A DNA stretch of 64,000 nt from Octopus vulgaris. Taxonomy: Eukaryota. Of the stretch, positions 5,783 through 62,432 are shown piece after piece. The DNA lies in the NCBI GenBank assembly GCA_951406725.2, contig OX597815.1, positions 45,260,001-45,324,000 on the forward strand. Direction: 5' to 3'. Every line of letters starts with the position of its first letter. The first letter of the stretch is position 1. The notes under the pieces were generated by a model. It worked only from the letters and a program-made list of their open reading frames with translations, was not told the DNA's origin and did not search any database. The translations under genes were made by a program, and so were the position numbers.

Positions 5783-6210
5783 GGCAGCGAGCTGGCTGAA
5801 TCATTTGCGCGACAGACAACCTGCTTCGCGGTATTTCTTCGAGCTTAAGTTTTGCTGCCAAACCTCGTTAAACTCATGCCAAGGTCAACTTTGCCTTTCA
5901 TCCTTTCGGAGCCGAAAATAAAATGTACAGTCAAGAATTGGGGTCGATGTTTGCGAGTATCCCCTCTCCTCCTTGCCTTGTGCCAAAATTGGAACCTGTA
6001 AAGGCGGCGGAAGGCCTGGCTGAATCGTTCCGCGCCAGACAAAAATGCTTAGCTGCATTTCTTCCGGCTTTACATTCTGAGTTCAAATTCCGCCGCAGTC
6101 GACTTTGCCTTTTATTCTTTCTGGGTCGATAAAATAACTACCAATTAAGTGCTGAAGTTGATGTAATCGAGTAGATACCCCACCTCAAAAGTTCTGCTCT
6201 TGTGCCTATA
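5783..6210 (+). mobile_element. Two tandem SINE family A copies
   Basis: Heads at 5783 and 6003, each followed by the family A core. Confidence 0.8.
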
Positions 6211-7426: not shown

Positions 7427-7468
7427 AGTATATATATATATATATATATATAAAAATATATATACATA

Positions 7469-7642
7469 TGCGTAGCCGTATTTCGTCTGCCGTTACGTTC
7501 TGAGTTCAAACTCCGCCGAGGTCGACTTTGCCTTTCATCCTTTCGAGGTCGATAAATTAAATACCAGTTACGCACTGGAGTCGATTTAATCGACTTAATC
7601 CGTTTGTCCCCTCTGTGTTTAGCCCCTTGTGGGTAGTAAAGA

Positions 7643-7646
<4 letters not shown>
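7469..7646 (+). mobile_element. SINE family A, 5'-truncated young copy
   Basis: Near-identical to 49045-49275 copy; ends GTAGTAAAGAAAT. Confidence 0.85.
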
Positions 7647-8535: not shown

Positions 8536-9309
8536 GTCACAAAAACAAATATATTTCTATATATATACATATATTATTAGAATATTAGATATGTATGCAT
8601 GTATGTATGTGTATACGTATATATGTATTGTGTATACGTATATATGTATGTATGTATACGTATGTATATGTATGTACGTATCCATACACACACACATAAA
8701 CAGTTGAATTGGATCCTTGAAACCAATCCTATTTCTGATACTATTGAAATATACAAAGTCTTTGAAAATGCAAAAAGTTTTTTGTAAAGGGTTTCCTACT
8801 TTCTCAATTGTATAACAAATAGGTTTGCTTTAAAAGATTCATTTCTGTTTCTTGGGGTCCTCTTAACGCTTTTGTTTTTCTTTCAGGCACCCCCGGTTCA
8901 ATCGTCTCTCTTTCGTTAGTACCGTATTTTCCGGTATACAAGTAGACGTAGCATATAACGTAAACATGTATTGTAAATATTTAAACATCGTCACTATCTT
9001 TTCCAAGTCTATGATCTTATGATGTTGTCTTAGTGTATAAGTCGACCTCGCTTTTTAAATTTTAAGCCGAAGATCTCGACGTGTATGCTGGAAAATTTGT
9101 TAATAATGTCTCCACCTCAATTCCACCACACACCATCACGGCAGTCCTTCTTCGACACATTGCAACCTTTTACTGTTGCTTCATGCCCATGTTTTTCCTA
9201 CAGCTGTCAACATACAAACTGTACAAGAGCAATACTGGCCGCACCAATCTAGCAAGTTTGAACAATAATCGTCGTATTTTGATCATGTAATAATTTTCGC
9301 CAATACATA

Positions 9310-9520
9310 TTGGTTTCAAATTTTGGCACAAGACCAACAAGTTCGTGAGAGGGGATAAGTCGAATACATTCACCCCAGTACTCAACTGGCACTTATTTTA
9401 TAGACCTCCTAAAGGATGAAAGCAAAGTCGACCTCGGTGGAATTTCAACTCAGATCATAAAGACTGACGAAATGTCGCTAAGCATTTTGCCCGGCTTGCT
9501 TGTGATTCTGCCAGCTCGAC
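9310..9520 (-). mobile_element. SINE family A
   Basis: Full reverse-complement match to family A. Confidence 0.8.
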
Positions 9521-9858
9521 ATCTTCTTTCCGAATATTGATAACATTTTAGTTAATATTTTGTTCTGAGGCAGAGGTAGCTTCTCCTTACCTGACATTAA
9601 AAGTGGCGTTTATGTCAGATGTGCCTTTTATTTAAAGAACGATACTTGGTGTTCTCCCTTGGTGAACAACATCCGATAACAAATGTCTGAATTCATAAAA
9701 ACTTTACATAATTGATATTTATTATCACACCATCGTAGTCTAGATACTTTTTTCTGCCGCTCTTGTTTGTGATACATTACGTTGGGTTCTTTTTAATCCA
9801 CTCAAAGTGTAATCTCAATGATGACCCTTCATAAAACTTATACCATCATAATTCGATT

Positions 9859-10196: not shown

Positions 10197-10412
10197 TTAA
10201 GCAGCGAGCTGGCAGACTCGTTAGCACTCCGGGTAAAATGCTCAGCGACATTTCGCCCGTCTTTACGCTCTGAGTTCAAATACCGCCGGGGTTAATTCTG
10301 CCTTTAACTCTTTTGGGGGTCAATGAAATAAGTATCAGTTGAGCAATGGGGTCGATAAAATCGACTTACCTTCTCCCTCGAAATTGCTGGCCTTGTGCCA
10401 AAACTTGAAACC
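10197..10412 (+). mobile_element. SINE family A
   Basis: Flanked by the ~17-bp repeat ATTATTAAATC(T/C)TACTG. Confidence 0.85.
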
Positions 10413-11003
10413 ATTATTAAATCCTACTGCCATTTTCTGTTGCACGCAGAAGCACGCGTACATACACACATACACACACACTAGCTAGCTAGCTAGATAG
10501 ATAGATGCCGGAGTAGGATGGTTAAAAGTTAAATTTGCTTGAAAATCCAGACGTTCTATTTAGTTCTACTGTATCCCTTCTTGAGCAAGATTATTATACC
10601 ATAATCGAAGGTCGATACATGCATGCGCACATTCCTATATACATAATGGTCGCTTGTCCTTAATTCAATCTTGAAATGAGACACATCAATTATAAACTCT
10701 TCTTTATTTGTCAGGTTCATCTTGGATATATGATAGTACTAAATGGTCAGCTGTATTCGCTAGAAATTAAAAACCACGTTTAGCATGGGTGTTGCGAATC
10801 TGCCTTTAGTAGACGCATGCTCCGAAGGTAAGTGTGTGATATGACAGTATGCTATTTTATTAAGTACGATGAATTAACTGAAGCAGACTAACACCAGAAT
10901 AAGACTTTAACCCAAGCTTTAAGTTTAAATGTCGACGGGTTGAACTTTACTTTTCATTCCATTTAATCCTTACAATAAGTACTCATGCACATAGTATGTG
11001 CAG

Positions 11004-17402: not shown

Positions 17403-18010
17403 AGGTGCAGGTATGATTGTATGGTTAAAAAGTTCGCTTTGCTACCACACGGCTTCGAGTTCAGTCCACTGCGCGGCATCTTGGGTAGGTGCTCGCTGCT
17501 GTAACCCCAAGTCTATCAATGCCTTCTGAATGAATTTGATAGATGGAAACTGGATATTTATGTATATGTATTACATTGACCCCCCCCACCCAGTGTTCAA
17601 CTGCTACTTATTTTATCGATCTCGGAAGGATGATACGCAAAGTCGACCTCGGTGGCATTTGAACTCGTAAGGTAAAACTAGTAGAAATGCCGTTAAGCAG
17701 TTTTTTTCTGCCGTACTAACGCTTCTGCCAACTCACCGCCTTTCAAAGATTTAATATAAAAAAATTGCGTTTACAGAAATATGGATATATGCAGGTTTAC
17801 AAATTTTGTGTTTGTGTTCGCTCTCTACCACTGCTTGTCAACCGCTGAGAGTTTCTTTACAACCTCGTAACATAGTGGTCCAGAAAAAAGAGAACGATAA
17901 AACAATTACCCGACTTAAAAGATTAGTACTAAGGTCGATTTGTTCGTCGAAACCCTTCAAGGCGGTGCCCCAGCATGGCTGCAGTCTAATGACAGACACA
18001 GGTTGAAAAT
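17403..18010 (+). mobile_element. SINE family C (GGCGCAGG...CCACATGGTTCCGGGTTCAGTCC head plus TTGACAACCG...GACTGAAACAAG tail) with nested family A copy (17580-17742, -)
   Basis: Other head copies at 22360, 31676, 38978(-), 29218(-); other tail copies at 22625, 24940, 25995(-), 32740, 38680(-), 50870(-), 52630(-), 59710(-). Confidence 0.7.
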
Positions 18011-20058: not shown

Positions 20059-20092
20059 TCATATAGCACCATATATGAGGTGTTGGTTCAAA

Positions 20093-20678
20093 GGCGGCGA
20101 GCTGGCAGGATCGTTATCACGCCGGGCGAAATGCTTAGTGGCTTTCGTCCATCTTCACGTTCTGAATTCAAATTCCTCCGAGATTAAGTTTACCTTTCAT
20201 CCTTTCGGGATCGATAAAATAAGTACCAGTTGAGTACTAGGGTCGATGGTGGCGAGCTGGCAGGCTCGTTAGCACGCCGGGCGAAATGCTTAGCAACTTT
20301 CTTCCATCTTCACTTTCTGAGTTCAAATTCCTCCGTGATCAAGTTTACCTTTCATCCTTTCGGGATCGATAAAATAAGTACCAGTTGACTACTGGAGTCG
20401 ATGGAATCGACTTACTCCTCTACCGAAATAACTGGCTTTGTGCCAAAATTTGAAATCAGTAAGAGGTTTAGGCAAGCGAGCTGGCAGAATGGTTAGCACG
20501 CCGGGAAAAATGCTTAGCTGCATTTCATCCGTCTTTATATTCTGAGTTCAAATTCCGCTATGGTCGACTTTATCTTTCGGAGGTCGATAAAATAAGTACC
20601 AGTTGAAAACTGGGGTCGATGTAATCGACTTACTCCTCCCCTAAAATTGCTTGTCTTGTGCATAAATTTGAAACCAAT
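20093..20678 (+). mobile_element. Three head-to-tail SINE family A copies
   Basis: Heads at 20093, 20248 and 20471; AGGTGTTGGT flanks the cluster. Confidence 0.85.
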
Positions 20679-21498
20679 ACCAGGTGTTGGTGCTTTTAAA
20701 AATGGAGTGGATTCAACGGCTTGATATGCAAGTATTTGGTTTTTGTGTGTGTTTTCTTTTATTGTTTTTGTGTAACTTTAGACTTTAGCTTATAACACCA
20801 TTTTATGGTGATGTGGCAAGGAATAACTTTCATGTGGTTTAATGAATTATGCTTTCCCTACTTATAAAAGCAAAAGGTACAAACTTCAAGCTAATGGTTT
20901 TGTCACCGTGTTACTAGCAAGAGAAGTATGTCACCATCTAGATAATTTGCCGCCATAATCACAATCTACTTACGTAACTAAATATTACGCAAACTTGATC
21001 CGTATTAAAATTCTGCCGTAAAAGATGCTTAATGTTGTTTTAAAATTCCGCTTTTGATTTGATATTTATATTTATTTATGCTGTGAATAATAAAAGAAAC
21101 AAAAGATTAGCAATAGTTGTCAAGAAGTTAGGTATAAGGTGTCACAGCAGGCGATGAGTCATGAGTAAGTATTAGATATCAGAGATATATTAGGTGTCAT
21201 ACATCAAGGTTTTAAAAATGAACCATAAACTAATTTAGTCAGGTCTGTCGAAACAAACTGTTTGATAAGACAGCTTATCTTTGAAGAGGTCACAATGCAG
21301 ATTTATTCAAATACTGCCTGTAATATATTTTAAGTCACGCAAATATTACATCTTTATTGTATTTCTAATAATTGGATCTCTTGTTTACAATTTCCATATG
21401 ATACATATTCCAATTATGAGAAAGAACTTCAGCAAAAAAGATAGCTCCGGTGAAGGGCTTCTTATGATTTCTAAAGTAAATTAGGTCCTCACATAAAG

Positions 21499-28111: not shown

Positions 28112-28250
28112 AGCACGGACTTTGTCAGTGAACAGGTCGCGGATTTTAGCGACGAAAATATTTTGACAAATTAAACTTAAATGTTGGAGTGAATCGAACG
28201 GCTTTTGTGTGTTTCTTAAATGGCTTATAAACACCTCCCACGCTGCAATT

Positions 28251-28254
<4 letters not shown>
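28112..28254 (+). mobile_element. Partial copy of the 40540-41094 element
   Basis: One visible mismatch to ~40894-41036. Confidence 0.85.
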
Positions 28255-32044: not shown

Positions 32045-33523
32045 CAGCCGAAATCTGCGATGAGGGATCAGTTTCTGACTGAAGAATGAAGGCTTTGAAT
32101 GACCCGTTTGTCTTTTTGTTCGTCCCTTCGTGTATTTCACGTTATTTATTTATGTAAAGGTCTATTATATATACATATATATATATATATATTGGGGCAA
32201 AAAGCCTTGCAACGTGTATTTAAATGCTCCTATGCTTCTAGTCGGCTACCACGTGTTATATCCTGGCGTAACTCAACGTACGGGTCTTCATGTGGAACTC
32301 CTTCTTACATAGGATTAAAATAATGATAATAACATGACGGTTGAAGTTGACAATCTTAAATGGTATATCACATCATATGTTTCTGCACCCCCACTGTAGT
32401 GTTGAGTTGCAATTTTCATATTCATATAACATAATTTAAGATTACACTTCTTCAGGTGGAAGCCGAGAAGTTTTTTTTTTTTCCACTCGATGAGGTAACC
32501 ACACAGAGCTGTTGTTAAAAAATCTTCAAATACATAACTATTAAGAGTAATTTTAAATAATGTTATATCAATATGATAATTGCTACTTAACGCTGGTGTC
32601 GTGTGCAGAAACATTTGTTGTGGAATATCATTAACTACTATCAACTTCCATCCTCGTGTTATTATTATATATATGTCATGCATTGATATGGCGGTGCATA
32701 TGTGCACGTATATATATGTATGTATATGTGTGCGTGCTTACTTCTTTGTGTTTATTCCTCCGTTGCTAGACAATTGGTGTTAGCTTGCTTACACCGCTGC
32801 AAACACGTTCGAGAGAATAAGTATAGTACTTAAAAAGAAGTCCTGAAGTCGACTTCTTGGGCTAAACACTTCAAAACGGTATTCCAGTATGACCGCTAAC
32901 AGAAAAAGTAACTGGCAGGAAAGTAACGGGAAACAAGACATACCTTTTCCATTTTTTGCATTCTTATATACGTCTTGGCAGCCGGTTTGCGTTTGTTTAT
33001 TTCCTTGTATCCAAGCGGTTCGGCAAAAAATACCGATAGAATAAGTACCAAGCTTAGAAATAGGTAATAGTGTCGATGCGTTCGAATAAATCTTTCGTGG
33101 CAGTACCCTGGAATGGCCACAGTCCAGTGACAGAAACAAGTAAAAGATAAAAGATAAGAAAGAACACTCACCAAAAAATCGATGGTACTTTCAGATCACA
33201 ACACTTATTTAAACAAAAATTCTCGCTTCATGAATTATTTCAGCAGGAGTTTGGCATTTAAAATCCAGCAATTTATATAAAAGATTCTAGAAATATTAAT
33301 GGAAGTTTGGTAAAGTTTCTCTTACGGTTTGTTAAAGAGTATATAAAAACATTATAAAAATCGTTTTCCAACAGGCTAACAGAGAAACCCGATGAAAGGT
33401 CCATCCACGAGATACCCACGGAAGACAGTTAAATCTCTCTCAAACCATACCCTACCAACAAAATAAATAATGTAGTGTGATATACATGATACCTGAACAT
33501 AAATCGAGATGTTTATAGCAGGA

Positions 33524-35940: not shown

Positions 35941-36662
35941 GGTGCGCATTGGCGAAATACTCCTATGCATAGAGTAACTAGTGCTTGAGATCGTATGTGG
36001 TAAGTCCAAACTTACTATAGGAGGCTTTCCGTTGTTTTCAGTTGTCATTAACCTGCAGTTAGACGTTTAATAGTCTAAACTGATCGATATTGACCTTTAT
36101 AGTTCCCTCAATCAATGGAGAATATAAGATTCGGTAGATTGGTTTCATGTGTACTTGTAGTGGTCAGTTTTATTATGTTATTGTTGTTATTGTTGTTGTC
36201 GTTGTTAATGTAGTTGTTTAACCCCCAGGTTATTACAGCTGAGCTATTATCAAAGGGCTTCCAGCTGGGGCCAAGTCAGTATTTTGAATATCAATGACTA
36301 CATTACCCAAGACGCCTATTTCTTTCTTAGTAAGGAAGTTTCTCTTTTTTTTTTTTAGCAAGTAAAGGGTCCTCCTAGAGGCCCTAAGTTTGCGTTGTGA
36401 TATATAATTGACTTTGCAGAACTATTATATTTGAACACCTGTTCTGTATGTAGTATCTAGTATTTGAACACCGACACTGTAGGTCATAATATTTAAACAC
36501 AGGCTGTGAAGGCACGTGGCCTTGTGGCTAGGGCGTTATAGATCGTGAATACGGTCTCTAGATCTTAAGCAAAACAATCCATTTCACATTGCTCTAGTGT
36601 TGTGTGGAGACTGGCATGCCAAAGAATCGAACCAACGTAAATAAATAAATAAATAAATAAAC

Positions 36663-36847
36663 GGCGAGCTGGCAGAATTGTTAGAACGCCGGGCAAAATG
36701 CTTAACAGTATTTAGTCCGAGTTCAAATTCTGAGTTCAAATTCTGCCGAGATCAGCTTTGCCTTTCATCCTTTCGGGGTGGATAAAATAAGTACCAATTG
36801 AACGCTGGGGTTGATGTAATTGACTCACTCCCAAAATTTGAAACCAG
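36663..36847 (+). mobile_element. SINE family A
   Basis: Head, B box (locally duplicated) and tail. Confidence 0.8.
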
Positions 36848-40539: not shown

Positions 40540-41094
40540 TATGGATCTATAGAATCATGTGGCTATCACGGAAAATTCCATCCAGCGGACCCAGCTAGCA
40601 GATGAAGATAATCCAATACTGAAGAATAAAATATGGAGTTCTATGCACCTGAAATCCAGGAGATCCGATCGTCCTGTTTATGTTACCAATTTTGACCCTC
40701 AGCAAAATCCCAAATTTTATTTAATTTGCTTTGCGGAAGCAACTGTTTCTTCGAAAGTGTATATTGTTGTTAAATGCTCGAAATACGAGACTAGAGAAAC
40801 AGCCAACAACTTTATGTTGTTTGTTTTGTTTTCCATTTGTGTCTTCCGTTGTTCGAAAGAACAGTTCATGTTCCATGTACTCGTGGTTTGTATTAGCACG
40901 GACTTTGTCAGTGAACAGGTCGCGGATTTTAGCGACGAAAATATTTTGACAAATTAAACTTAAATGTTGGAGTGAATCGAACGGCTTTTGTGTGTTTCTT
41001 AAATGGCTTATAAACACCTTCCACGCTGCAATTGTTTTCGTTTCAGCACACGATCTCAGATCAAATTACTTGCTATGCGAGTACATCTCCGTAA
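40540..41094 (+). mobile_element. Unclassified young ~550-bp interspersed element with THAP-like remnant
   Basis: Near-identical partial copies at 43115-43244 and 28112-28254; termini TATGGA...TCCGTA. Confidence 0.7.
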
Positions 41095-42840: not shown

Positions 42841-43116
42841 ATAAATACCTGATTTATATTTTTTCTAGAGAACAAAAAAGAATAATAAATAATTGATCTG
42901 TTTAAATGTGTTCCAACTGACATTTTTACGGGTTTGATTTTTTTTTAATATTTGTTTGTTAATTTTTTTAATTGTATAATTGTGATAAATACCTGATTTA
43001 TATTTCTTCTAGAGAACAAAAAAGAATAATAAATAATTGATCTGTTTAAATGTGTTCCAACTGACATTTTTACGGGTTTGATTTTTTTTAAATATTTGTT
43101 TGTTAATTTTTTTAAT
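42841..43116 (+). repeat. Recent tandem duplication, 144-bp period
   Basis: 42841-42972 and 42985-43116 are nearly identical. Confidence 0.9.
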
Positions 43117-43289
43117 GGATCTATAGAATCATGTGGCTATCACGGAAAAGTCCATCCAGCGGACCCAGCTAGCAGATGAAGATAATCCAATACTGAAGAA
43201 TAAAATATGGAGTTCTATGCACCTGAAATCCAGGAGATCCGATCTTTCGCTATATATATATCATGTATATATATATATTTTTTTTTGTT

Positions 43290-49044: not shown

Positions 49045-49275
49045 TATTTCTTTATTGCCCACAAGGGGCTAAACACAGAGAGGACAAACAAGGACAGACA
49101 AATGGATTAAGTCGATTATATCGCCCCCAGTGCGTAACTGGTGCTTATTTAATCGACCCCGAAAGGATGAAAGGCAAAGTCGACCTCGGCGGAATTTGAA
49201 CTCAGAACGTAGCGGCAGACGAAATACCGCTAAGCATTTCGCCTGGCGCGCTAACGTTTCTGCCATCTCGCCGCC
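49045..49275 (-). mobile_element. Young full-length SINE family A
   Basis: Perfect 16-bp TSD TAGTCATAGAGAAATA (49029-44, 49276-91). Confidence 0.92.
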
Positions 49276-49410
49276 TAGTCATAGAGAAATAGAAAAGGTG
49301 TTGAAAGTGAAGAGAGAGAGGGGAAAGGGAGAGAGTCAGACAGACCGACTGGCAGGACAAGAGACAGGAAGAGAGAGAAACGACAGAGAAATAGGGAGAA
49401 TAAAAAAGAT

Positions 49411-51006: not shown

Positions 51007-51098
51007 TTCAGTACCCTCATGCGTGCGCACAGGGGTGTGCTGAAAAGTTCCTGGAATTATAAGAAATTCCATTTTCATTCTTAGCTGTATTTCTAAAG

Positions 51099-51306
51099 GC
51101 GGCGAGCTAGTGGAATCGTTAGCCCGCCGGGCAAAATGCTTAGCAGCGTTTCGTCTGTTTTTACGTTCAAATTCCGCCGAGGTCGACTTTGCCTTTCATC
51201 CTTTTGGGGTCAATGAAATAAAGTATGAGCTAAGCACTGAGGTCGATGTAACTGACTGCTCCATCTTCTCAAAAACTGCTGGTTCTGTGCCACAGTTTTG
51301 AAACCA
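51099..51306 (+). mobile_element. SINE family A
   Basis: Head, B box and tail. Confidence 0.8.
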
Positions 51307-51556
51307 TTACTTATTTTATTTACACCCCGTCCCATATGTATAATACAATAGAAACAATTGTCGGCTTTATTCTATAATAAAGAAATAATTTACCGTGTAC
51401 GTATTTGTTTGTTGTCAAGTACTCTGGATTTCTCGAAATTCTTCTGAAGAACATTTGGATCTACTTGTCATACTCGAGAATTTACCTTGCACGTATATTC
51501 TACTTACATTTACAGGTGTCTGATTGTTGGATATTTTTTTAAACCCCCACCATTTT

Positions 51557-58836: not shown

Positions 58837-59058
58837 GATGTTTTTCAATTTCTTAAAACAATAATTTATTAATTACCTTTCTATTGTCTCATCTTATTAT
58901 TATAATGAATTAAAAATATATAAACCACGGTTTATATAGTTACCTTGCAGTGGAGTATTAAATAGAATGTTCAATACACTTTGTATAGGTTCATAGGATT
59001 TTGCTATCCCTGAATGAGGTTTGTAGCCTTTAATGGTGCCTATATATATATATATATA

Positions 59059-59480
59059 AACTATTATTTTCCGGGAACGCTGCCGCTGTTCTCTTTTAGA
59101 GAGACTTAGTAATTTTAATATTTCTATTATTGAAAACAAGTGGATGTATTCCACCGAAACTAGGTAAATAAAACCATCGAACAGAGATTGTCGGAAGCGA
59201 CACCTACTGGCTGGCTACGTTGCATTGAAAAGGGGCAATACCCCGAAACGCGTCTGTAGCTGCCGGTCAAGTAGTGTGGAGCGACTGACCTCCCTTGTTC
59301 GAAGGTTATATGGATACAGTTTGTGTATCAAATAGCTAACTTAAGGCGATGGCCTCATGGAGCTAATAAGCGGACAGCTTTATTCTTATTTTTATATGAA
59401 TGCCATATTAGTATGGCGATAACTATTATTTTCCGGGAACGCTGCCGCTGTTCTCTTTTAGAGAGACTTAGTAATTTTTA
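59059..59480 (+). mobile_element. Retrozyme/PLE-pLTR-like non-coding element, 362-nt unit with ~57-bp terminal direct repeat, in (TA)n
   Basis: AACTATTATTTTCCGGGAACGCTGCCGCTG... identical at 59059 and 59421; homolog of 553-963. Confidence 0.75.
59219..59260 (+). ncRNA. Minimal type I hammerhead ribozyme, U3-A8 core variant
   Basis: GTTGCA-TTGAAAA-GGGG-CAATA-CCCC-GAAA-CGC-GTC-TGTAGC; palindrome ACGCGT; GUC site after 59254. Confidence 0.8.
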
Positions 59481-60094
59481 TATATATATGTGTGTATATA
59501 TATATATATCCATATATCTGTTTATCTTTTATTGGGGTTGCTGGGGCACCGCTTTGAAGAATTTTAGACGAATGAACCAACCCCAGTGCCTTTTTTTGTT
59601 TTTATTTCAAGTATTAGTACTTATTCTATCGTTTCTTTAGCCGAACCGCTATGTTACGGGGTCGTAAAACACCGCCATTGATTGTCAAGTGATGTTGGGG
59701 ACAAACACAAAGATTCACACACACACACACGCACACACACACACGCACACACACACACGACATATATTTTTTTTAACTGGCTCTCCATAAGTTACGATGA
59801 CGAGGGTTCCACTTGATCCGATCAGAGGAAAAGCCGTCTCGCGAAATTAACACGCAAGTGGCTGAGCACTCCACAGATACATATCCCCATTACATGCTTC
59901 ACAGGGAGATTCAGCGCGACACAGAGTGTGACAAGTGTGGCTCTTTGAAATACAGGTACTACTTATTTTTGCTAGCTGAGTGGACTGGAGCAACGTGAAA
60001 TAAAGAATCTTGCACAAGGACACAACGCGTCGCCAGGAATTGAACACATGACCTCCACGCTCGCGCGCGCGCGTGCGAATACATGTATATTCAA

Positions 60095-61552: not shown

Positions 61553-62432
61553 TTTAATTTAATTTATGTGTCTCGAGCTATGATGTGCTGACGATTCAAA
61601 GAAGGATGAAATAGTGCGGTATATGTTTACCAACGACCAGAAACTTTAAGAAATGTACGTATATTGTATAGACAAAAATAAATTAAATATGCATACTCTG
61701 CACATCTTTACTTTTTAATGTAAATTCCAAACTTTCATATCTGCCTCAACTTAGTTTAATCTAAAAGGGAACTCAAATTCTGCCGCGGTTGATTTTGTTT
61801 TTCATCCTTTTGGGGTCGATGAAATAAGTACCAGATGAACACTGAGGTCGATGTAATCGACTTAACCTCCTCTCCAGAATTGTTAGCCTTACGCCAGAAT
61901 TTGAAAACTATATGTATACATATTCTTCTCCCTATCACGCAGTGACCGACAATAGAAAGTTATAGTCGAGTCTGCAGTGTGTCTGACAATATATTCCTAG
62001 GTTGCGAATAAAAGTGTAAGGGATCTGTGGCCGTTCGCGTGGTGATCGCATTTTATTGGTTAATTTTCAATTCAATCAACCAATGAACGATAGTTTGGCA
62101 TGCAGCTGTTTTCCAGAATTTTGTCTTACTCATTTTCGCCTTCTCTTCGTTGCATGGTATGTCGTTTGAGATTTTGCAAATAGTTTTCTAAAAATTAATA
62201 TTATTAATATTTTTTAAAAATACATTTCTTTATAGTACAGCTTATAATATACTAGCTACTGTTCAGTATCTCTCCGTATGATAATAAACAAATACGACAA
62301 TTATTATCGATTTTATCGTAGATTTTTTAATATTGTGTGAGTCACACTTTTTTAATTGGTCGCCGTTTGGGTGTCAGTTAATTTGAGGATGCCACATCAT
62401 TAGGAGAAATACGGTACATATATAAAATATTA

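Follow-up and report, generated by a model that had tools for sequence, protein, structure and literature searches.

A young U3–A8 hammerhead retrozyme family of Octopus vulgaris and a LINE occupying a fixed site in its unit

The window analysed here is a stretch of 64,000 nucleotides (nt) from Octopus vulgaris (GenBank assembly GCA_951406725.2, contig OX597815.1, positions 45,260,001–45,324,000, forward strand), and it carries at 59059–59478 a copy of a repeat built around a hammerhead ribozyme motif. By its sequence, the element is a retrozyme that lacks long terminal repeats (LTRs), a non-LTR retrozyme, and as such of an already known kind; the new part is a site-specific long interspersed nuclear element (LINE), found in other copies at position 151 of the unit. 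Judged from sequence, the repeat probably belongs to a young, non-coding retrozyme family that has a fixed U3–A8 hammerhead motif and is copied in a Penelope-type manner from RNA that is likely to be circular. The family offers a young, abundant and testable case of a natural U3–A8 core under apparent selection, and its insertion structures connect retrozymes directly with Penelope-type priming and with a monomer template, both of which were put forward but not demonstrated in the papers cited below. Of greater importance than the retrozyme itself is the nested LINE, which would complete a three-tier system of Penelope element, retrozyme and target-specific LINE. Papers given by PMC or bioRxiv number are cited for passages of their text.

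The retrozyme unit and its hammerhead core

The unit of this family (family A) has 362 nt (59059–59420, plus strand) and is followed by the first 58 nt of a second turn (59421–59478, plus strand), which matches the family consensus through position 58. The copy lies between (TA)n at 59041–59058 and a (TA)n-rich right flank at 59479–59509. A preliminary description of this DNA had reported about 1.15 units with a 57-bp terminal direct repeat; the 362-nt unit in (TA)n stands, whereas the repeat (58 nt) is not a fixed feature. Its interpretation as an LTR is rejected, since 5′ ends vary freely in the family and the 3′ end of the window copy is atypical. The GC content of the unit is 0.41 (0.414), and the longest ATG frame in a tandem array of the unit has 38 amino acids, so no protein is encoded.

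The type I hammerhead (59219–59260, plus strand; identified from sequence, fold and covariation) contains core positions 3–9 and 12–17, a Watson–Crick 3–8 pair and three helices: helix I (59219–59224/59255–59260), helix II (59232–59235/59241–59244) and a palindromic helix III (59248–59253). U3 (59225), A8 (59230) and C17 (59254, after which cleavage is predicted) are placed as first described. A long hairpin extends helix I (59195–59285, plus strand); these 91 nt have a predicted energy of −38.7 kcal/mol (z −4.1; 0/200 shuffles as good), and the predicted circular fold of the whole unit gives z −6.9 (0/100 shuffles as good). The 42-nt core folded alone is not significant (z −1.1). An Rfam search of the element returned no hammerhead match at E ≤ 10, and among the 150 matches listed of 308 for the window only microsatellite-driven microRNA matches occur. 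Rfam gave one weak HH9 match (E 2.2) across 16 hammerhead loci, mostly C3–G8 relatives, which indicates that its models also miss canonical cores in this genome.

The core state was determined across the genome (2.8 Gb, 227 contigs). A search with the unit gave 1,116 first-look candidates, and the 40 scored loci, arrays among them, were mostly 98–100% identical. The exact 32-nt core pattern occurs 1,102 times as U3–A8, twice with C3 (both C3–A8) and never as C3–G8. U3–A8 is therefore the family state, fixed in a young family of more than 1,000 copies, and the consensus is U3–A8 rather than C3–G8. The earlier proposal that the variant characterises the family and does not reflect decay is thus supported, with covariation and palindromic helix III variants pointing the same way (see below). 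Its novelty had been overrated, because natural U3–A8 cores were already in print (Perreault 2011; Schistosoma Penelope elements, 2014): the variant occurs in about 1,300 Schistosoma motifs (PMC4209133), and natural U3–A8 covariation has been described with citation of earlier in vitro activity (PMC3088659).

An older homolog (family B) of about 1.2 units lies at 556–963 on the minus strand and is 73% identical to the unit over 434 columns. It had been presented as a second copy with the same core, and U3–A8 is indeed read there (777–806). Compared with its own family-B subfamily it has lost 11 nt, which made up the 3′ strand of helix II together with loop II; the window homolog is thus itself decayed and is rejected as a working ribozyme. 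A genome search for family B gave 2,378 candidates (best matches, 82–88% identity), and U3 and A8 are present in 37/37 aligned hammerheads.

Covariation was assessed in 125 cores from 93 of 100 loci, a sample of related sequences in which overlapping loci count more than once. Helix I pair 4 is U–A (108) or C–G (14), pair 6 is G–C (90) or U–A (24), and helix II pairs 1 and 2 are G–C or A–U (A–U in 8 and 9 cores, respectively); altogether, alternative standard pairs recur at three positions of helix I and two of helix II. All four bases are found at N7. Three different palindromes, which go with the subfamilies, account for helix III in 82, 25 and 5 cores, and single-change forms account for it in 13, a short palindromic helix III being a described feature of hammerheads that work as dimers (PMC4209133, PMC7229834). 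Given the relatedness of the sequences these are few events, yet their recurrence follows the subfamilies, a pattern that selection on source elements would produce, and the covarying helices I and II together with the palindromic helix III argue for selection rather than decay. The pairing of stem I that had been noted in the window copy holds, except that its G–U pair is a near-private change (unit position 162 C>T, 2/38 loci) and the consensus is G–C.

Metazoan non-LTR retrozymes and their circles have been described (Cervera and De la Pena 2020, PMC7229834). The octopus element resembles them in its non-coding tandem unit of 150–450 bp, one type I hammerhead per unit, GC content below 50%, self-paired predicted circle and, in common with the amphibian type, a helix III that is short and palindromic; the units of mussels measure 350–390 bp, compared with 362 nt here. 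It differs in that U3–A8 is fixed in a young high-copy family and in that a Penelope-type tail and inverted arms are documented on the retrozyme itself. The Penelope-like Cercyon minimal hammerheads of Schistosoma mansoni (PMC4209133) and the natural variants of PMC3088659 exhibit the same 3–8 covariation, but Cercyon motifs are heterogeneous and mostly single minimal ones, whereas a 6-bp helix I and a 4-bp helix II recur here in tandem units that are 98–99% identical.

Further hammerhead repeat families are present in the genome (L228, L230, L235, L236, L239, L245, L250, L254, L255, L258, L260, L261, L266, L216, L221). They are mostly C3–G8, none reaches the Rfam gathering score, and two have inverted arms like family A.

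Insertion structure and the copied template

Ends were analysed in 38 family-A loci with a mean divergence of 0.48%, in which tandem arrays reach 9.87 units. The 3′ ends fall at unit position about 6–13 or 69–72 and run into (TA)n; the tail interval that holds both preferred ends corresponds to 59061–59130 (plus strand) in the window. The 5′ ends are variable and, in at least 38 loci, are spread across the unit, so that there are no fixed LTRs (primer-binding sites and polypurine tracts were not searched for). Two-armed inverted insertions combine one 3′ end of each class in 23 of 25 cases (the complex locus L066 was left out); the remaining two are interrupted by the LINE and follow the same rule once it is crossed. 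All 25 have the features of non-autonomous Penelope-like insertions, namely an inverted 5′ arm, a tail at one end and a microsatellite target. Penelope elements are known for inverted structures of which a single end bears the tail (PMC8557442), a rule explained by two internal reverse-transcription starts and cutting of both strands (PMC11167929). Family A shares with endonuclease-positive (EN+) Penelope-like elements, and with the non-autonomous forms of these (PMC8557442; PAc, PMC11167929), partial tandems, an inverted 5′-truncated arm, a tail at one end only, AT-rich or microsatellite targets and, probably, two internal start sites; unlike those elements, family A has a tail of about 60 nt instead of 30–40 and no frame.

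The units within a locus are highly uniform. The lineage markers at unit positions 53 and 324 are invariant in 32/32 and 36/36 multi-copy loci, respectively, and the two arms agree at position 53 in 17/17 and at position 324 in 20/20 cases (permutation p 5e-4 and 7e-5). Rare variants likewise extend over whole loci, for example 184 C>T in 11/11 units of the 9.87-unit array L061. This uniformity favours repeated copying of one, probably circular, monomer, and in that form it agrees with the earlier suggestion that structures longer than one unit derive from circular or multimeric RNA. Fixation of a variant in all units needs a repeatedly copied monomer, as a circle provides, although homogeneous multimeric transcripts could serve some rounds. 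The tandem multimers sought on the basis of that suggestion exist and are free of protein-coding sequence, and the unit is not merely the terminal repeat of a coding element. The 5′ ends cluster at unit positions 230–247, the 3′ foot of the long hairpin (14/87 versus 4.3 expected), in a window that, like the one around the predicted cut discussed below, was chosen post hoc; a few of the 87 ends are internal alignment breaks.

In the proposed cycle, the retrozyme is likely transcribed and then likely cut by its hammerhead, which is predicted to work best as a dimer, and the cut monomer is probably closed into a 362-nt circle. A Penelope-type protein with reverse transcriptase (RT) and GIY-YIG endonuclease domains likely copies the circle into (TA)n sites. 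We infer that both strands are cut by this protein and that a cDNA is primed from each of two internal starts about 60 nt apart, which would yield one tailed and one tail-less arm. Each cDNA would circle the same monomer for 0.1–9.9 turns, with the foot of the long hairpin as the commonest stopping point. Derivation of non-LTR retrozymes from Penelope elements has been reported (Li et al., bioRxiv 10.64898/2026.07.22.740005).

A candidate for this protein is encoded in the genome. Among 6,136 GIY-YIG candidates, many have intact frames of 781 residues with RT and GIY-YIG domains that are 95–99% identical to one another. In this young family a U3–A8 hammerhead motif follows the frame in 13/13 loci, ends are TA-rich or (TA)n, a 30-nt tail is present and two inverted loci carry one end of each kind; a second scan of GIY-YIG loci found the motif in 18/37. 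In its hammerhead U17 and a weak helix I predominate, and the features shared with the retrozyme unit are limited to the U3–A8 core, a single palindrome of helix III and an end motif of 7 nt. The 781-residue family is a plausible but unproven partner. Downstream of its frame, L193–L201 contain variable numbers of tandem repeat copies upstream of the U3–A8 hammerhead, with motifs that we take to be CCAAT-like and TGACGTC.

Several observations weigh against copying of a ribozyme-generated circle by such a partner. Two variants occur in 2/4 units of L078 and one in 3/4 units of L079, which a pure single-monomer template does not explain. The 5′ ends near the predicted cut are weakly enriched (5/87, nominal P 0.027; 19/362 windows equal that), too weakly to count, and were rejected as evidence of cleavage. 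A terminal repeat homologous to the unit was not found in 50 loci fetched from the GIY-YIG candidates. Eight of nine Xenopus retrozyme dimers remained uncleaved in vitro (bioRxiv 10.64898/2026.07.22.740005), and an Anolis Penelope element inserted without need of hammerhead cleavage, unprocessed RNA being its main substrate (PMC11167929).

The last two reports, together with the two-unit pattern in L078 and the predominant U17 and weak helix I of the candidate partner, lend some weight to mobilisation by a Penelope element from a linear, uncut multimeric transcript, with a hammerhead that is weak or dispensable. This alternative is considered unlikely, as variants fixed in all units and both arms point to a monomer bottleneck, helices I and II covary and the helix III palindrome is kept across subfamilies. 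Expansion of a DNA-level satellite with a fossil hammerhead by unequal exchange, which the head-to-tail arrays might suggest, is hardly credible and is largely refuted by the dispersal of copies over many contigs and by their inverted arms, 3′ ends at two fixed places, 5′ ends that vary and flanking (TA)n.

The LINE at position 151 of the unit

Two of the 38 family-A loci break off at unit position 151 into one common sequence, a LINE of 5,369 nt. Its first open reading frame (ORF1) contains a zinc knuckle, and ORF2 contains an apurinic/apyrimidinic endonuclease (APE) domain, RT and a C-terminal zinc domain. From this architecture we take the element to be L1/Tx1-like; clade naming through homologs failed, no named Tx1 reference being among them, and a homolog at 62% identity is labelled Argonauta hians. 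The window copy has the empty target site at 59193–59209 (plus strand; unit positions 135–151), which forms a 17-bp target-site duplication (TSD) in occupied copies elsewhere.

The junctions define the site precisely. Of 30 loci fetched from 40 matches to the 5′ end, 16 have a complete end with an identity of 95% or more; retrozyme position 151 precedes 13 of them, and a previous LINE with the 17-bp duplication precedes the other three. Among 30 loci fetched from 42 matches to the 3′ end, an identity of 97% or more is reached by 21; 17 of these continue into retrozyme position 135, three into the duplication and another LINE, and one into unrelated DNA, while none of the nine older ends continues into a family-A retrozyme. 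Genome-wide, 21 exact 3′ junctions with the 17-bp duplication occur in 16 loci, compared with 1,097 empty sites. By the measure used for target-specific elements (a single target type that holds over 20% of the copies; PMC4494074), 20/21 young ends and 9–12/30 older ends lie in such targets. Downstream of the insertion, the hammerhead remains intact together with its long stem. The LINE was rejected as the mobiliser of the retrozyme, whose ends are Penelope-type and bound to (TA)n; it is the APE-type LINE that would exploit the retrozyme as a multicopy, transcribed landing site.

A single old insertion that has since hitchhiked as a retrozyme–LINE composite, with no target specificity of its own, would account for the complete and identical 5′ junction of the 16 young copies and for the host variant common to L152 and the array on C2 described below. 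Also, L148 looks as if Penelope-type copying had begun at the tail, entered the LINE and stopped there, and it may be such a composite. As a general explanation hitchhiking is nonetheless decidedly improbable: other units and inverted arms are unoccupied in loci where the LINE fills one unit, hosts come from at least four subfamilies, the unit-135 allele matches on both sides of each LINE, and the 2-kb 5′-truncated copy L147 has both flanks and the duplication, which together indicate largely independent insertions. LINE–TSD–LINE tandems also occur, and in unrelated hammerhead families older relatives occupy the corresponding position (see below).

At G000:C2:73044600-73069000 (L157–L159), five LINE copies are arranged in tandem with either the 17-bp duplication or a single retrozyme unit between them, and the four full-length ones differ by 0.07–0.19%. 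In L143, a 70-nt LINE 3′ fragment (839–908) lies at the target site in one inverted arm, and the other arm carries a full LINE.

Target-specific Tx1 LINEs (Tx1L in Tx1D, Keno in U2 small nuclear RNA [snRNA], Tx1-Mar in Mariner-N4) likewise combine a fixed site, APE and RT, a host that is another repeat or an snRNA gene, and tandem insertion into their own duplication, and Tx1 elements as a group target transposons and snRNA genes (PMC4494074). The octopus LINE, for which the Tx1 label rests on architecture, differs in that its targets are hammerhead retroelements of several unrelated sequences, entered at a fixed distance from the core. Literature searches, which did not extend to supplements or Repbase, returned no account of hammerhead elements serving as targets of a LINE; a database entry may exist. 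The repeat annotation of Octopus vulgaris lists active L1-Tx1 and Penelope families, and the terms "ribozyme" and "retrozyme" do not occur in its main-text passages (PMC13282606). PMC3884650 and PMC7151607 serve as background.

Older relatives of the LINE and the shift of targets

Older LINE relatives sit 25–33 nt upstream of hammerhead cores in other repeat families. Two copies of about 70% identity are flanked by duplications of the 17-bp class and then by hammerheads of other families; a duplication was seen for 2/11 older copies, whose 3′ ends were retrieved at an assumed distance. For a 16-nt motif of the LINE end there are 111 matches (28 for the control), and the first 40 not-yet-seen places among the 100 listed were sampled. 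Thirty were scored as LINE ends, and 12 of them have a hammerhead 5–40 nt away by a relaxed descriptor, nine at offset 25–27; controls gave 1/30 and 0/30 (background, 102/3,000). Three more hammerheads are visible by eye. The cores are mostly C3–G8. The other approximately 18 ends lie elsewhere, and most targets start with A and pyrimidines. Taken together, these observations indicate that the old lineage has a short sequence preference and a strong bias to hammerhead elements; the family-A target site starts with purines and so breaks this preference. Two other shared sequences follow older ends (L240, L259 and L264; L233 and L247), which suggests further preferred targets.

A second branch is tied to U1 snRNA. 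LINE copies of 91–95% identity include two whose 5′ junction carries the first 17 nt of U1, as well as one followed by full U1 (125 bits), and they branch outside the young cluster, under midpoint rooting only. Two U1-type copies have three endonuclease differences from the retrozyme type in common, and both differ at a fourth position. A cluster of U1 5′ ends with nested LINE copies occurs at G000:C18:48969167-49051960 (L099, L140, L141, L162, L226) and is possibly a U1 gene split by piled-up insertions; its U1 5′ motif has 21 matches genome-wide. In L135 (G000:C15), a full U2 snRNA gene (2249–2442; 182 bits) lies on the opposite strand about 400 nt from the 3′ end of a LINE that carries the 17-nt U1 leader.

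A LINE lineage specialised on hammerhead retroelements, with RNA-assisted homing between targets of unrelated sequence, is put forward as a tentative and somewhat doubtful model. The LINE would sit at the foot of the ribozyme hairpin, the host element would supply transcription and the ribozyme would trim the read-through RNA, leaving a target-matching tail of roughly 60 nt that could pair with nicked DNA. Such a LINE might track and switch targets (several retrozyme families, U1 snRNA) with only three or four endonuclease changes. A near-identical endonuclease on dissimilar targets allows testing of how LINE target choice shifts, and co-option of a genomic hammerhead by an unrelated retrotransposon is testable as well.

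The window contains other repeats. A dispersed repeat of about 130–220 nt, probably a short interspersed nuclear element (SINE), has more than ten copies of 70–85% identity (2–140, 6000–6206, 7468–7646, 9302–9521, 10198–10417, 17589–17746, 20085–20685, 36658–36831, 49045–49277, 51094–51315 and 61769–61912). A 346-nt stretch at 32323–32668 is self-complementary (70%), and direct repeats of 130–143 nt with 99% identity pair 28112–28254 with 40895–41037 and 40541–40670 with 43115–43244.
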